From Chlamydiota bacterium (GTDB lineage Bacteria; Chlamydiota; Chlamydiia; Chlamydiales; RGXB01), in contig CANLTW010000022.1 in NCBI GenBank assembly GCA_947494155.1, positions 1 to 18,528 of the forward strand: a stretch of DNA of 18,528 bases. The letters are read 5' to 3'. A program made the position numbers. Below, piece after piece: positions 1-6,000 of this stretch (position 1 is its first letter; each line of letters starts with the position of its first letter).

Positions 1-3000
1 TATTCAAATTTACCAACTCATGATCAACATCTTAGCGATTTGTTTAAAGATCAATACTCTTTCGAAACAGGTGTAGAGGTTCGTCGGTGTAGTGATTATC
101 CCCTAGAAGAACTTAAGGGACTAAATCCAGAGCGCCTGAAGCTACAAGAGTCCTTTTCTAGCTTTAATGGGTTCCATTCATCGAAAAAAAATCTTCTGCA
201 AACTGCTGTTACTTTAAGAGAACTACACTCAGAGGGAAGTAACGTAAGTGGCGGTATGAAAATTAAAGAAGAGCATATCGGCTTTTCTCTAGCCCCCGTA
301 AAGGACTATAGCGTTTCTATCCCCACTAAAGAAACTAATGACCAGCCTAAATTCACACTGGTTAATCGCTATTTCCGAAACAGCCTTTTCAATGGCAGCT
401 CCTACGAACAAGAAGGGAAAACTATTGAGATCAAAGATGCCTGTTCGTCCTGCTGGGATAGGACTGATCATGAAATCCCCTCCTGGCGTCTAACAGAGAC
501 TGAAACAAAGGAATCCATTTTTTACGCTGGAAGACCTGATACCGAACAAAGAGCAAAAATTCAGGGTATAGACATCTTCTTGAACGAACTTAGGACCGGC
601 AAACTTAAGGGGTTTTTCCCTTTAGAAGACCAAACAATTGAGCTCCATTATGTTGTCGATTCTCTCACAAACCCCACCGATGGTCTATCTGGATGGAGAA
701 AAAAACTAGGGGCCGGCCAGGCTCTCGATGAGAGAAAATCGCTTGAATGGGAAATGGATGCTTTAAAAAATTTAAGAAGTTCCGACGAACCCATAAAAAT
801 CGAATATGGGGGAAAAAATTATTCCATTCTTTTACGCCCGATGCACACCCATAATACTGTCAGCTGTATGGGAACCTTTAATACCTTTAATGACACGGGA
901 AAAGAGCTTGAGAACAGCATTAATTCTGATTCCTACACCCAACTCCAAGCCCTTTTTGAAAAAAGGAAGGGAAAATTAAACAAAAAACTTGAAGTAATCG
1001 GGGATGAAATTGTAGCTAAACTTGGTGATGGAAAAAACAGCACTAGTGTACCTGTGCATATTCGCCTTGCCATGGTGGACATGTTGGCTAAAATCCTCGA
1101 GGTCCCCATAGTACACCACTGTAAAAGTGTTGTAGACAGAACCTCAGGAGCTGGGGCTGTATCGGTGGCTAACCAGATTGTCTACGAAGATCTTAAATCC
1201 CCAACACCACAGTTTTCAGGGAAATTTGAAGATATCGTCAGCTCACCAAAATACAAAAATCTGTTTCATAAAGGGCTTCAAAGCCAGTTAAGCGTTTCCG
1301 CAGATCTTCGTTCAGCCGTTGATCCGTCAGGGGAATTAAACACAAAAAGGGTTCTTCCAGGGTTTATGTGGCACTCAGAACCGGAAGTGCAAGCGCACGG
1401 TTTCATCCCCTTGATCCCAGAGGCTGGGCTAAAACACTTCTCTTTAATCCAAAAAATTAAAAATTATGCAAAACAATGCTTCATTCTGCTAATCCAACTT
1501 GTCTTTTTTCCAGCTACGCTTGTTTTGGGGTTACCGTTTGTTAAACCTACCTGGATTAAACTAGATAAAGTACTAAATTTGGAATCGAATTTATTATCTG
1601 AGGGGGGCACAAGGCCACTTTTAGAGGGTCCTGCAAACAAAAGATTTAAAGAGGATCTTAAAAAAGGAATACGAGATGCTCAAATGACCCTAAAGGCCAA
1701 GGCCGATCCCCTTAAAAACCAACTTTCTCAAAAGGGACGGGAGGCCATTTATGGAGAAGAGCCTAGGGACGTAGAGCTCGTTGAATTGAAAAATAAAGAT
1801 ATTTAGTAAAATTGGAGGGTAGCACGCATCAAGGCGGCGCCCTCCCTTTTTTTGTACTGGGTCATGAGAATAAGGTTTTTAGCTGTAAGCTTGAGGAACT
1901 TATTCGTTCGCCGTTGATACCCCTCGGCACCCCCCCCTGAATCTCCTTTTTTTTGTTTTTACATTTAGTTCTAGCCTCCAAGGATTGATCTTTTTTGCTT
2001 GGTTTGGAATGCTTCTTTATACTTTTCTCCTTTTTTCTGCCTGATAAGGTAAAAGCTTTTTGTTTACAATCTAACGTTATAAAGCTGTATGCTCGAAGAA
2101 CTTAGTCCTCCTTAGGCTGGGGAGCATCTTAAAGAGGACTACTTGAGAAAGAAGTTTTGATAATAGATAAGACGCGGTTTGAGCAGATAAAAGAGCATTC
2201 TTTTTTAAAAAAAAGCTCGTTGAATAGAAAAATCAAGATATTCTAGTAAAATTGGAGGGTAGCACGCATCAAGGCGGCGCCCTCCCCTTTTTTTTGTATC
2301 GGATCTAGAGGGGTTAGAAAAAGGGTACTTGCTTTTCTAATGATGGGAAATTCCAGATTTTCTTTAAGCTCGAATTCGTTAGGGCAATAAATTTCTAATG
2401 GAGCCTGATTGATAGGATCTTGCAGCCATTCAAGAGATAAAATTTTTTGAGCGGGATCAAAGGTAAACTTAAGGAGTTCTCCAGGGATCCTTTGCGGGTA
2501 GGGTCTAAGAAATGGGGTCAAATCATTTTCCTCCCCCTCTTTATAGATAGAAAAATTCTCAAAATTCCAGGCATCTCCTTGTGGTGAATAGTGCCAAAAA
2601 GTCGCCGAGAGCCTCTGTTTTTCCAAAAGGGTAAACAGTCTATCGAAGCATTTTTTTCGATCAGTAACAGAGATATCACGGGAAAAGCCGGTTTCCGACA
2701 GCAAAGATGGCACTGGATGGTTGGAGAGTATTTCGAGCTCTTTTTCCATTTTTTTCAAAATATAAGAGGATCTACCCCAAACCACTCTTTTCTCCAAGTG
2801 GGAGTAGCTAAGGTTAGAGAGGTATTTTTTTAAGTAAAACGCGATTCCCTCATACCAATGAAAGGAGAAGACCGCATTTGTTTGCAGGCTTTCGGGAAGC
2901 GTTGGAATATTTTCCCCTACCAAACCCTCGATAAACAAAAGATAATTGGGGTGTACTTTGTTCAATCGCTCTTTGAGCTTTTCCACAAAAGGGAGATAAA

Positions 3001-6000
3001 AATCTCTTTGGAAATCCAAAGGGAAATGTCTAAAGGTAAAGTAGTAGGGGTTCAAAAGATGAAATCTCCCCTTTTCTTTACTATAAACACCCTCTTTTTC
3101 AAAAGGGCATCCATCTTTAAATATGCCTATACTTTTGGGATTTAATAGTATGGTACCCGTCTGAAATAGACCTGTCCATTTTCTTTCGAACACCTCCACT
3201 TCACAACTCAAGCCCGCGCCGATCTTTAAGGAGTCCATGTATTTTGGGGAGGGTCCAAGGGGATTGTCTGGACGCTCGTGAAGATTTTTTCCAATCAGAC
3301 CCGCGCTGGGCTCATTCATGGTGTTGCACCCTACTACAAAAGGGTTTTCTTTAAGTCTTTCCATCAAATGACAGACAGCCTCTATGTAGTGGCTCTGAAG
3401 GAACTCCTGGATGTTTTTTTCCCCTACTCGTAATGAGGGTGTGAATGTCTCTCCTCCAAAAAAAAGGGTAAACATGGTTTGGCAAGCGATTCTATTGTAA
3501 TTCAAATACCACGCTAGATGCAGGTATTCGGGATTTTGTTTTTCCAAATGACGAGGATCCACCAGGGCATCTGCTTCAAAAAGTCGTTTAAGGTCTAAAC
3601 CGGCAGCTTCAAGAGCCCAGCGAGGGGCACCACTGCCAAAAAGATGGCGCGAGAATAGATCTTGATGCATATCAATCACTACATAAATACCCCTTTCAGC
3701 AGCCAATCGGCAAAAATCGACCACGTAAGTAATATATTCCTCGTCGTAAACTTTTGGCCCTTTGCCCTCGATCGCTTCCCATGTAGTGAGAAACCGGATA
3801 TGATTCATCCCTAAATCTTTTATCCTGTCAAGATGCTCTTTTGCCTCCTCTAATGGAAAAGGTCTATTGACAAACGAGCCGTTTTCTGAAGAGGGGTACT
3901 TACAGATTCCGGATACATTTACTCCCCTCAAAAGGAGCTCGCGCCCCTTCTCATCAAGAAATTTTTTCCCTTTCGTAGTGATCGATAAAAAAATAAGAGG
4001 AACACAAAGGAGGTATTGCAGCATTTAAAAGGTACCACTATTTAAATTGTAATTTTATCTGGTGTTGGTAAACCGACGGATCGGGATAGAATTCGATCTT
4101 ACTCTCTTCTTTTAATATTTGAAACTGCCCCAATGTAAAAGAGCCCGAAACATAATCGAATGAGGGGGGAACCCAAATTCTTACAGGGCTTGATGAGGAG
4201 TTTTTGAACCAAAATCGCAATACAAAACTCTTTTTAAACGGATCGTAAGCCTGATGGGTAACGTAACCGGGCAAAAGCTCTACGTGGGGGGATAAAAATG
4301 GGGCGTAGTCATTTTTTTCCCCCTCCTGATAGATCGTAAAATTCTCGTGATTCCAAAGATCCCCTTTAGGGGCATATTGCCAGACAAAATAGCTTAAATC
4401 AAGCCGGTCAACAGCACTCAATGTTCTATGAAAAGCTCTAAGGCGCTGTTTTGACCCATCTTCAAAGAGAAAGCGGCCCACATCCCGTGTTACACCCGTT
4501 TCGGTAATGACGGTCGGAGCATCTTTGCCTAACCTTTTTTTGTTTTCCAAATCAATATGTTTGAAATCCTCTAAAACGGCACGACTCACTTTAAAGGGGA
4601 AACCAAAACGAATTTTTTTGAAAAAAATACTGTAGTGTAAAAGAGGGATATATTGCTTGAATACCATGGTAAAGGGTTCATAATAATGGATTGAAGCGAC
4701 AAGATTTTTCAAAGCATCCTCAACTAGAAAGGGGGAGAGCTCCCCAACCCCCTGCTCAATAAAAAAGGACCATTTAGGATATTTTTTTCCAATTTTTTCC
4801 CCGATTGAAAGGATAAACGGGCGGTAAAAGTGCTGATCAAACGAACTTTTTTTCCCATTTTTAAAATAATTCGGTTTTAATAGTTCGGGATAGCCTTCGC
4901 TATTGATTTTGTATACCCCGTGTTTTTCCCAAATACACCCGTTTTTCCAAATAGGGATCTGATGTGGATTCAGTATTCTCTTTTCTTTCTCTTTTTTTCT
5001 AAAATACGAAAATTTAATGAACGGAACCGATTGGGGAAGGCCTGCCCCTATCAAAATCGATTGATAGGGTGAAGGGGATATCCCTAAATCCATAAACATA
5101 TGGGATTCCTTTAACGCCGAGCCTATCAAACCGGGGTTTGGTTCATTCATGGTATTAAAACCTATGATCCAGGGATTTAAAGAGATTTTTTCTAATAGTT
5201 TATCTAAGGCCTTTATGTAGTGGTCTTGCAGAAAATCCTGGATATTTTGCCCCTCCACTTCAAGCTTCGGAGCGAAAGTTTTTCCCCCAAAAAAAAGGGT
5301 GAACATCGTTTGACACGCAATTCGTCTATAGGCGTTGAACCAATTAAGATGCTTAAGCTCTTTTTCCTCATGGTGCTTTGGATGGATGACCGCATCTGCT
5401 TTTACCACCACGCTTAGGTTAATACCAGCAGCTTCAATTGCCCACGCAGGGGCTCCACTTCCGAAAAAATACCGGGAAAAGAGATCTTGGTGCATATCGA
5501 TGAGGATATAAAAACCATAGGAGCCCGCCTTTTTAAGGAATCTGTCCACAAAATCTAAATATTCTTCATCGTATTTCATTGGTCCTGAACGCTCAATAGC
5601 ATCCCAGGTGACAATGTAACGAATTGCATTGAAACCCAATTCTTTTAACCGTGAGAAATGGGAGTCGGACTCCTCCACAGAAAAAGGGATATTTATATAG
5701 GAGTCGGTCTGTAAATCGGGTGTTTTGGAGGCTCCCGAAAGGTTGATCCCTTTGAAACGTACCCTTGCACCCTCTTTGTCCCAGAAAAAACCCTCTTGAA
5801 CCGTAAGCAAATATCACCCCAACGGAATCGTGAGCAACGGCGCATTCGATTTTGCATCGGTCGCTTGAAGATTATAAAGCTGTAACAGCAAAACAAACGT
5901 CCGTTTGGACTGGATATCACCTAGATCTATGTAAAACCAGTACCCTTTATAATGGACTTTAACAAAGGATTCTTTTGGTTTGGTTTTAGAAACTTTTACC

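Follow-up and report, generated by a model that had tools for sequence, protein, structure and literature searches.

The window, an 18,528-nt stretch of DNA from an uncultured lake chlamydia (Chlamydiota assembly GCA_947494155.1), carries two adjacent genes, g01231 and g01232, whose sequences identify them as intact retaining beta-glucosidases of subfamily GH5_12. The pair probably derives, in a reading that we hold with modest confidence, from an inherited chlamydial glucosidase that was duplicated and in one copy fitted with a leader, both products acting on host steryl glucoside and/or glucosylceramide. The family, the intact active site, the leader asymmetry, purifying selection and chlamydial synteny can be read directly from the data. 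On present evidence the finding amounts to a duplication, specific to this lineage, within an already known glycosidase subfamily; one of the two copies has apparently been rerouted for export. An earlier note on this DNA had taken the pair for fungal-type enzymes within a kit that points to a fungal or chytrid host. The evidence does not favour a fungal host.

The gene pair, its active site and its leader

Table 1. Features of the window discussed in the text
Feature	Position	Strand	Size	Remarks
Convergent neighbour	1..1806	+		Cut by contig end; conserved C-K-S-x-x-D-R-T motif; synteny kept in genus
Direct repeat (96%)	1804-1856 and 2244-2298 (span 1804..2298)	+	55 nt	Flanks an insert of ~390 nt behind the g01231 stop
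g01231	2243..4024	-	593 aa	GH5_12 beta-glucosidase, leader-bearing paralogue
N-terminal extension of g01231	3983..4024	-	14 codons	Hydrophobic; predicted short Sec-type signal or membrane anchor
g01232	4038..5810	-	590 aa	GH5_12 beta-glucosidase, leaderless; TTG start
Conserved lipoprotein-like gene	5814..6899	-		3 nt upstream of g01232; lipobox-like LLGC (read from sequence)

The earlier description of two adjacent GH5 genes, g01231 with a leader and g01232 without, is confirmed, with lengths of 593 and 590 aa. They lie in tandem and are 40% identical over 581 aligned amino acids. Pfam Cellulase matches both, and Glyco_hydro_5_C matches g01231 only. The Asn-Glu acid/base and Glu nucleophile of clan A are present as N237/E238/E444 in g01231 (acid/base Glu238, codon 3311-3313; nucleophile Glu444, codon 2693-2695) and as N222/E223/E437 in g01232 (Glu223, codon 5142-5144; Glu437, codon 4500-4502). 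Among solved structures, 8exd and 7lpo, both fungal sterylglucosidases, are the best matches. Glucose binding, catalysis and the wall that limits the pocket to one sugar are ascribed in Sgl1 to K47, H142, D144, N269, E270, Y453, E520, W570, W584 and E587 (passages of PMC8497620), and all ten have identical counterparts in both g01231 and g01232. These ten residues are common to nearly all GH5_12 rows, free-living bacteria included, as well as to two outgroup rows, and thus define the sugar and not the aglycone. Sgl1 has a closed, Y-shaped hydrophobic pocket covered by a cap; on this aglycone side its Leu458 is replaced in the pair by Phe or Met, and its Leu431 aligns with Gly. Three loops are shorter in the pair, with 8 residues against mostly 20-30, 9 against 14 (the W570-W584 loop) and 19 against mostly 29, so that the W584 wall may be displaced. 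Against the NCBIfam endoglycoceramidase I model (NF051847) the proteins reach 61.7 and 54 bits, far below the cut-off of 700. The characterised GH5_12 activities covered by excerpts of PMC3526467 are glucosylceramidase and (flavonoid) beta-glucosidase.

Purifying selection acts on both genes (dN/dS 0.04 and 0.11, where dS is measurable). The faster-evolving copy is g01231 (dN 0.31 versus 0.12-0.13 against L004/L005); g01232 is 81-92% identical across relatives. Contigs from RNA runs cover pieces of both genes in 4/4 runs compared, at low depth and with DNA carry-over possible. RNA runs contain only 0.08-0.23 of the words, and the four compared say nothing about strand, expression level or co-transcription. 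Matching words are next to absent from three size-fractionated RNA runs. In the ESM Atlas g01231 falls into bacterial-majority GH5 clusters only.

The N-terminal extension is found in 7/7 g01231 orthologues examined, with a peak Kyte-Doolittle value of 2.3-3.1, and is absent in six leaderless rows. Among the nearest homologues outside the pair, one of 107 has a hydrophobic extension. The leader is short in the source genome and has no positive n-region there; g01231 is apparently exported, as far as such an extension can predict.

Ancestry and gene neighbourhood

The fungal-type label is largely a Swiss-Prot artefact. By a single method g01231 scores 229-241 bits against four named fungal proteins and 319-347 against five bacterial-type proteins (four of them named), and g01232 scores 234-256 and 293-321, respectively. 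The pair had been called most like the fungal EGCrP enzymes, a claim not confirmed, given these higher scores of bacterial homologues. Beyond the 12 rows that belong to the clade of the pair itself, the 108 matches listed are 617-669 aa long and 33-37% identical, and the four with an organism name belong to Anaerolineae or Coriobacteriia.

A GH5_12 ingroup supported at 100/99 against EGCase-like outgroups holds the pair together with named fungal EGCrP-type proteins and bacterial rows. The pair groups with the other chlamydial GH5_12 proteins at 98 SH-like (201 rows), 95 SH-aLRT (32 rows) and 93/85 (51 rows, PMSF), the smaller sets being subsets of the 201 rows; the value of 93/85, from the best model, is not starred. 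It lies outside the fungal clade (99/97) in a tree that includes chytrid, glomeromycete and yeast sequences. Of the tree rows, 4/10 labelled 'fungal' and four bacterial ones are named, the 'euk' and most 'bac' labels were assigned from position and length, and row P0183, labelled 'bac', is the thraustochytrid Hondaea. In AU tests a sister position to fungi is rejected under PMSF (p 0.040) but not under LG+G4 (p 0.16). Nesting with the two larger fungal halves is not rejected (p 0.094, 0.124; LG+G4), and all chlamydial and fungal rows together fall on the same side of a branch with support 66. This surviving affinity, together with the fungal origin of the closest solved relatives, speaks for the proposal that the GH5 pair, GH18, GH64 and sterol reductase genes form a secreted kit to enter and exploit a fungus such as a chytrid. 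Bacterial homologues are nevertheless closer, and trees in which the pair nests with the yeast-like trio or with Fimicolochytrium are rejected (p 0.034 and 0.036); we consider the proposal highly improbable. The GSGAP, S-G-x-x-K and NYxR segments were rejected as a fungal signature, being patchy over fungal, bacterial and other chlamydial rows.

The GH5_12 subfamily profile matches 17/400 chlamydial genomes (G005 was left unscored in the GH5_12, sterol reductase, GH64-like and lipoprotein genome counts). GH5_12 is present in all seven genomes of the genus/family, the source genome and 6/6 others. Outside the phylum the family is frequent in Chloroflexota (62/78 parsed loci).

The lipoprotein-like gene is the probable first gene of a three-gene operon with g01232 and g01231. 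It also lies directly upstream of GH5_12 in G096 and G296, members of other chlamydial families, and upstream of a GH5 remnant in G256; this order occurs in 0/80 further GH5_12 loci, mostly of Chloroflexota. An obligate partnership with GH5_12 was rejected, as the lipoprotein-like gene is present in 70/330 genomes and neighbours vary among the 16 loci listed. The ESM Atlas places it in unnamed lipoprotein clusters. The repeat-flanked insert is not part of the enzyme, and the relatives L006 and L007 have just 17-33 nt at that site. The convergent neighbour, which we take to be CX5R phosphatase-like, has no match in Pfam, NCBIfam or PDB. Promoter and terminator scans of positions 1700-7100 give chance-level counts (9 versus 9.6; 7 versus 7.3).

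Possible roles and the host

Substrate, export, localisation and host are inferred. Both enzymes would be retaining exo-beta-glucosidases that remove a single terminal glucose from glucosides with a hydrophobic aglycone, the likeliest being steryl glucoside and/or glucosylceramide of the host. The ancestral gene would have stood downstream of a lipoprotein gene in an older chlamydial lineage, and its duplication before the genus diversified may have been accompanied by loss of three active-site loops and gain of a short leader by one copy. The product of g01232 presumably stays in the cytoplasm and acts on imported or membrane-inserted glucosides. That of g01231 could reach the envelope or periplasm by Sec export, perhaps continue through the type II secretion system (a GspD secretin is above its cut-off in G000, the source genome), and act on host lipid at the inclusion. 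Freed glucose could enter metabolism via glucokinase, which is encoded in 7/7 genomes of the genus, and freed sterol or ceramide could alter host or bacterial membranes. A GT21 search gave no match, which suggests that the substrate is not self-made. The host would be a eukaryote, most likely a protist.

The two enzymes may instead be general nutritional beta-glucosidases that free glucose from aryl glucosides or from short gluco-oligosaccharides, derived for instance from host storage glucan or digested prey, and not from lipids; we regard this as a lesser but real possibility. It is consistent with the glucokinase, with shortened loops that may open the pocket and with the abundance of GH5_12 in free-living Chloroflexota, which have no intracellular host. 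A yeast flavonoid beta-glucosidase belongs to the subfamily (PMC3526467, in part), and Sgl1 accepts resorufin glucoside (PMC8497620, in part). Chlamydiae, however, generally take up glucose-6-phosphate through UhpC, according to portions of PMC8242063, and would have less need for free glucose. The pair also retains a hydrophobic residue at the Leu458 position, and a Pfam search of the window places no sugar transporter beside the GH5 genes. The pair gives a testable hint that chlamydiae in the environment target the steryl glucoside or glucosylceramide of their hosts. In a literature search whose coverage excludes most subscription journals, GH5_12 in chlamydiae is unreported.

The remaining genes of the supposed kit, g00555 at C4, g00077 at C1 and g00585 at C5, lie outside the window and are common chlamydial accessories. 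The GH18 chitinase g00555 (239.6 bits, Pfam) keeps Glu172 and Asp170 of its DxDxE motif, with Asp168 changed to Glu, so that the earlier report of a retained catalytic Glu stands. GH18 occurs in 109/401 chlamydial genomes, in 2/3 of the named-locus genomes G404-G406 and, at 62% identity to the source gene, in Ca. Amphrikana amoebophyrae; within the genus 6/7 genomes have a match, broken in G291. The second gene, g00077, had been described as a GH64-like beta-1,3-glucanase, which was not confirmed. It scores 22 bits against a Pfam cut-off of 27 and carries Leu360 (codon CTT) at the position of the LPHase catalytic Glu154, with Asp170 kept. A 12-sequence profile of the family is homologous to LPHase (9vp9, 5h4e, 9vsf and 3gd0, E 1e-21 to 6e-18), and Pfam GH64 matches 11/12 of its members, g00077 being the exception. 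Elsewhere in the genus the catalytic Glu is Leu in G403, Lys in G401 and kept in G291 and G402, and the gene was not found in G069 or G163. Relatives of the GH18 and GH64-like genes also occur in other named intracellular bacteria, the GH64-like ones in Ca. Bandiella, Ca. Sacchlamyda, Coxiellaceae and Legionellales. The third gene, g00585, belongs to the ERG4/ERG24 sterol reductase family and matches no sterol reductase subtype model. Sterol reductase is present in 132/400 chlamydial genomes and 7/7 of the genus; a search of G404-G406 gave no match, but lacked a working control and is not evidence of absence. Delta-7 reductase is known in amoeba symbionts (part of PMC2667531). Being widespread in the phylum, these three genes alone give no basis for inferring a host.

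The sterol reductase also bears on the idea that the pair are transglucosylases, moving glucose from host glucosylceramide onto a sterol, possibly the product of this reductase, for steryl glucoside in the bacterium's own envelope. Retaining glucocerebrosidases do so in animal membranes (PMC7666875, in part), GT21 was not found, and sterol reductase and GH5_12 occur together throughout the genus. Across the phylum the two are not coupled (132/400 versus 17/400 genomes), and we judge the idea unlikely.

Six lines of evidence leave a fungal or chytrid host unsupported. The pair sits within a chlamydial branch of GH5_12 outside the fungal clade, the accessory genes are common across the phylum and in other intracellular bacteria, and the set is not retained jointly in the genus (GH18 broken, GH64-like missing or Glu-less). 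The chytrids examined contain delta-5 sterols without a C-7 double bond and no ergosterol, while Acanthamoeba produces ergosterol and carries a gene for chitin synthase. GH20 and NagA-family chitin-catabolism genes were not found in the source genome (97.6% complete), and every public run that contains source DNA is a metagenome from a lake or other freshwater. The earlier note had itself rightly cautioned that these families occur in chlamydiae of amoebae, that Acanthamoeba has such sterols and that specificities rest on ~30% identity; of its interpretation the EGCrP/Sgl1-like class, mono-glucoside hydrolases that act on host lipids, remains plausible and has the support of the active site, but the step to the host is unsupported. 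On the other side, endofungal Mycetohabitans enters its host using chitinase (PMC12306442, in part), and Chlamydiae are among the phyla detected in fungal-isolate screens (PMC8497576, in part). According to PMC11317633, the true hosts have yet to be established for the MAGs recovered from cultures of Amoebophrya and kelp. It is very doubtful that this genus from lakes has a fungus, or a fungus-like organism with a wall, as its host and enters and remodels it with the exported GH5_12 copy, the chitinase and a GH64 protein that binds glucan but is catalytically dead. If true, this would make it the first chlamydia to live in a fungus, a major widening of the range of the phylum; 'chlamydi' occurs nowhere in a 2025 review on endofungal bacteria, and a literature search gave no such report either.

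Relation to known enzymes

The pair shares the ten glucose-binding, catalytic and capping residues of Cryptococcus Sgl1/EGCrP2 (7lpo), Aspergillus SglA (8exd) and fungal EGCrP1 and, by sequence, their GH5 catalytic domain followed by a C-terminal domain. It differs from the named fungal members in identity (~30-34%) and length (~590 versus about 770-920 aa), and in its three shorter loops, changed aglycone residues, position outside the fungal clade and one leadered copy. The bacterial GH5_12 clade (Anaerolineae, Coriobacteriia and others), noted in sections of PMC3526467, is closer in score and similar in length, with the same active-site residues. Its members differ in being single-copy where examined and mostly leaderless, although several Bacteroidota have long N-terminal hydrophobic extensions, and in having no lipoprotein neighbour in 80 loci. 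The searches made found no characterised member of this clade. The pair adds two enzymes, easy to express, from the bacterial part of GH5_12, which has been little studied.

Nearest to the pair in all trees are the GH5_12 proteins of other chlamydial families (f30, f19 and f40). Most of their rows share Met/Phe for Pro in the DxHQD motif, and G096 and G296 share the upstream lipoprotein. They differ in having full-length loops in most rows, no tandem pair among the matches listed and no hydrophobic leader among the N-termini listed. A functional parallel is SrfJ of Salmonella, a member of GH30. There, too, an intracellular bacterium delivers a glucosylceramidase effector to its host (part of PMC10179164), but SrfJ belongs to another glycoside hydrolase family, uses type III secretion and acts in a mammalian host.

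The gene pair and its surroundings

The earlier note described two adjacent GH5 genes of about 590 codons, g01231 with a leader and g01232 without, and this description holds. The two predicted beta-glucosidase genes of subfamily GH5_12 are separated by 13 nt, encode proteins 40% identical to each other and are the only GH5_12 matches in a search of the whole source genome (1.41 Mb, 97.6% complete), of which the window is contig C22. The g01231 protein has 14 hydrophobic residues ahead of its domain. A hydrophobic N-terminal extension is found in 7/7 g01231 orthologues and 0/6 leaderless rows, and an extension like it in one of the 107 scorable nearest homologues outside the pair. 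Because the lipoprotein-like gene ends 3 nt before the TTG of g01232, there is no space for a leader on that copy. Gene order is kept in four relatives' GH5 loci (L004-L007). Both genes are under purifying selection, and the leader copy has accumulated about 2.4-fold the change of g01232 (versus L004 and L005). Contigs from RNA runs of four studies cover parts of g01231 and g01232 as well as the two gene junctions, a pattern that fits expression without proving it.

Positions and properties of features in the window
Feature	Positions	Strand	Remarks
g01231	2243-4024	-	593 aa, intact ORF
g01232	4038-5810	-	590 aa, intact ORF, TTG start
Lipoprotein-like gene	5814-6899	-	uncharacterised, without Pfam family
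Contig-end ORF	1-1806	+	C-K-S-x-x-D-R-T motif kept in 4/4 relatives
55-nt direct repeat	1804-2298		flanks insert of ~390 nt
Tandem acidic proteins	13555-14271 and 14457-15170	-	50% identical to each other

The contig-end ORF has no match in Pfam, NCBIfam or PDB. Its motif, which we take to resemble that of CX5R phosphoinositide phosphatases, makes it a possible second host-lipid enzyme, convergent with the GH5 pair. The repeat-flanked segment resembles a small mobile or repetitive element, with an 81% copy of 1963-2203 on another contig (C18:21612-21852). DNA identity to L007 is 92-99% at 201-1800, 98% at 2201-2400, 89-97% at 3601-4200 and 63-83% elsewhere; the high-identity tracts represent mosaic recombination between species. 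They take in both the leader end and the C-terminus of g01231, and also the ORF next to it. The tandem acidic proteins match nothing in Pfam or NCBIfam, and the source genome has no further copy of them.

Active site and affinities of the pair

Pfam Cellulase matches both proteins. The best solved-structure matches are the characterised fungal enzymes SglA of Aspergillus (207 bits for g01231, 228 for g01232) and Sgl1 of Cryptococcus (181 and 205 bits). In Sgl1, ten residues catalyse the reaction, bind glucose or form the one-sugar wall (PMC8497620, in part), and all have identical counterparts in both aligned proteins. Since all ten are kept, the pair is predicted to be retaining mono-glucoside hydrolases rather than cellulases. 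The aglycone side is altered: Leu458 is replaced by Phe or Met, Leu431 aligns with Gly, and three loops are trimmed relative to nearly every other GH5_12 row. The lipid specificity of the fungal enzymes cannot be copied to the pair. The subfamily comprises a fungal clade and a clade dominated by bacteria, its activities being those of a glucosylceramidase and a flavonoid beta-glucosidase (PMC3526467, in part). A general aryl- or oligo-glucosidase is a less likely, rival reading of the pair.

The claim that the pair is most like the fungal EGCrP enzymes fails on direct comparison: by one method, four named fungal proteins score 229-256 bits against it and five bacterial-type proteins 293-347 bits. 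In the g01231 search, 12 rows of its own clade are followed by 108 listed matches of 617-669 aa at 318-347 bits, among which the four named organisms are all Anaerolineae or Coriobacteriia. Against SglA, two of these bacterial proteins reach 426 and 416 bits, roughly double the pair's scores. That all the Swiss-Prot matches are fungal is most likely a matter of which members have been curated.

A profile search gave 150 representatives for the phylogeny. The trees group the pair with other chlamydial GH5_12 at support 98 (FastTree, 201 rows), 95 (LG+G4, 32 rows) and 93/85, not starred (PMSF, 51 rows); in the last, fungal rows stand apart at 99/97. By cluster look-up, one clade contains rows named Babjeviella, Entophlyctis, Geosiphon and Fimicolochytrium, and a row from outside it is Hondaea. 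AU tests give p 0.040 (PMSF) and 0.16 (LG+G4) for the pair joined to fungi, and 0.094, 0.124, 0.034 and 0.036 for nesting within fungal subgroups; all chlamydial and fungal rows together make one side of a branch at support 66. The values 0.16, 0.094 and 0.124 and this shared side leave room for a deep fungal affinity. A recent fungal donor is unlikely.

GH5_12 occurs in 17/400 phylum-sample genomes (3/3 of family f1 plus the source genome, 11/17 of f30, 1/1 of f19, and G296), and in 7/7 genomes of the pair's family. In G096 (f19) and G296 (f40), too, the lipoprotein gene is the immediate upstream neighbour of GH5_12; in G256 (f30) it stands upstream of a GH5 remnant. It neighbours GH5_12 in 0/80 other loci with 3-kb flanks searched. 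The lipoprotein-GH5_12 synteny is independent support for the chlamydial grouping. The lipoprotein itself is present in 70/330 chlamydial genomes, is nearly universal in f9 (25/28) and was not found in f4, f6 or f10 with the window protein as query. Several f30 GH5_12 proteins (L060-L065) carry a non-hydrophobic N-terminal extension of ~35-40 residues, possibly another targeting signal.

Companion enzymes and the host

The GH18 gene (g00555) is a real family match and keeps its catalytic Glu, as the earlier note had it. GH18 is found in 109/401 chlamydial genomes, 100 of them above cut-off. Among 30 loci compared, 15 other intact chlamydial proteins are 47-71% identical. The G291 copy of the gene carries two stops. 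Candidatus Amphrikana amoebophyrae has a 62%-identical protein, and many cyanobacteria are among the next relatives. No GH20 or amidohydrolase (NagA) family member was found in the 97.6% complete genome, so chitin probably does not serve as food. The sterol reductase (g00585), its family confirmed, is present in 132/400 chlamydial genomes and 7/7 of the genus. Delta-7 reductase is already known from Protochlamydia amoebophila and Legionella drancourtii (PMC2667531, in part), and sponge chlamydiae also have sterol reductases (PMC9666466, in part).

For g00077, proposed as a GH64-like beta-1,3-glucanase, the homology stands in a profile search and the activity is doubtful. The column of the catalytic Glu154 of the GH64 enzyme LPHase shows Leu in the source genome and G403 and Lys in G401, so that the source copy is probably inactive as a glucanase; the G291 orthologue keeps the Glu. 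Two different substitutions within the genus (L049 739-2778, L271, L274) suggest candidate glucan-binding pseudoenzymes. The protein occurs in 5/7 genomes of the genus and was not found in G069 (96% complete) or G163 (92%). By hand count ~30/400 genomes match its C-terminal part, the weakest perhaps through the proline-rich linker; relatives occur in Candidatus Bandiella, Candidatus Sacchlamyda, Coxiellaceae and Legionellales. At L049 102-2778, on contig C1 of the source genome, the GH64-like protein also has an N-terminal domain and this linker. The domain, which recurs in many stand-alone chlamydial proteins of ~200 aa, is presumably histidine-phosphatase-like, with a degenerate motif in the source genome. 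Upstream lies a 2OG-Fe(II) oxygenase gene, which we take to be of prolyl-4-hydroxylase type; its product could modify the linker.

Of 24 listed public runs, 14 contain at least half of the sequence words. Every one of these is a metagenome of lake or fresh water; they come from 10 studies, one of which may be the source. None of the 14 is a fungal culture, and no run points to a particular host. Chitin and storage beta-1,3-glucan occur in chrysophytes and diatoms. Acanthamoeba has ergosterol as its major sterol (PMC5557935, in part) and a chitin synthase gene (PMC6541295, in part), and algae and plants also contain steryl glucosides (PMC7666875, in part). The chytrids examined, few species being sampled, contain cholesterol or 24-alkyl delta-5 sterols without a C-7 double bond (PMC2878339, in part), a poor fit to the equation of ergosterol plus delta-7 reductase with a chytrid. 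Chlamydiae are among the phyla detected in fungal isolates (PMC8497576, in part), and a chitinase serves entry in an endofungal bacterium (PMC12306442, in part); the portions seen of PMC13229535 and PMC8242063 contain no fungal host of chlamydiae. With GH18 and sterol reductase widespread in the phylum, the GH64-like protein devoid of its Glu and the chytrid sterols a misfit, a kit against a fungal or chytrid host is highly improbable.

Proposed role

The most likely reading, held with moderate confidence, is that the pair cuts glucose off steryl glucoside or glucosylceramide of the host. Of the two copies, one would act inside the cell and the other be exported, both on host glucosides, and the freed glucose would be usable via glucokinase, which is present in 7/7 genomes. 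A GspD secretin is present, and GT21 was not found. Transglucosylation, in which the pair would build steryl glucoside, is rather improbable. The earlier observation is thus confirmed in part, and its interpretation is upheld for the enzyme class only. The pair adds further members to a known subfamily, with duplication, leader and trimmed loops as its lineage-specific features.
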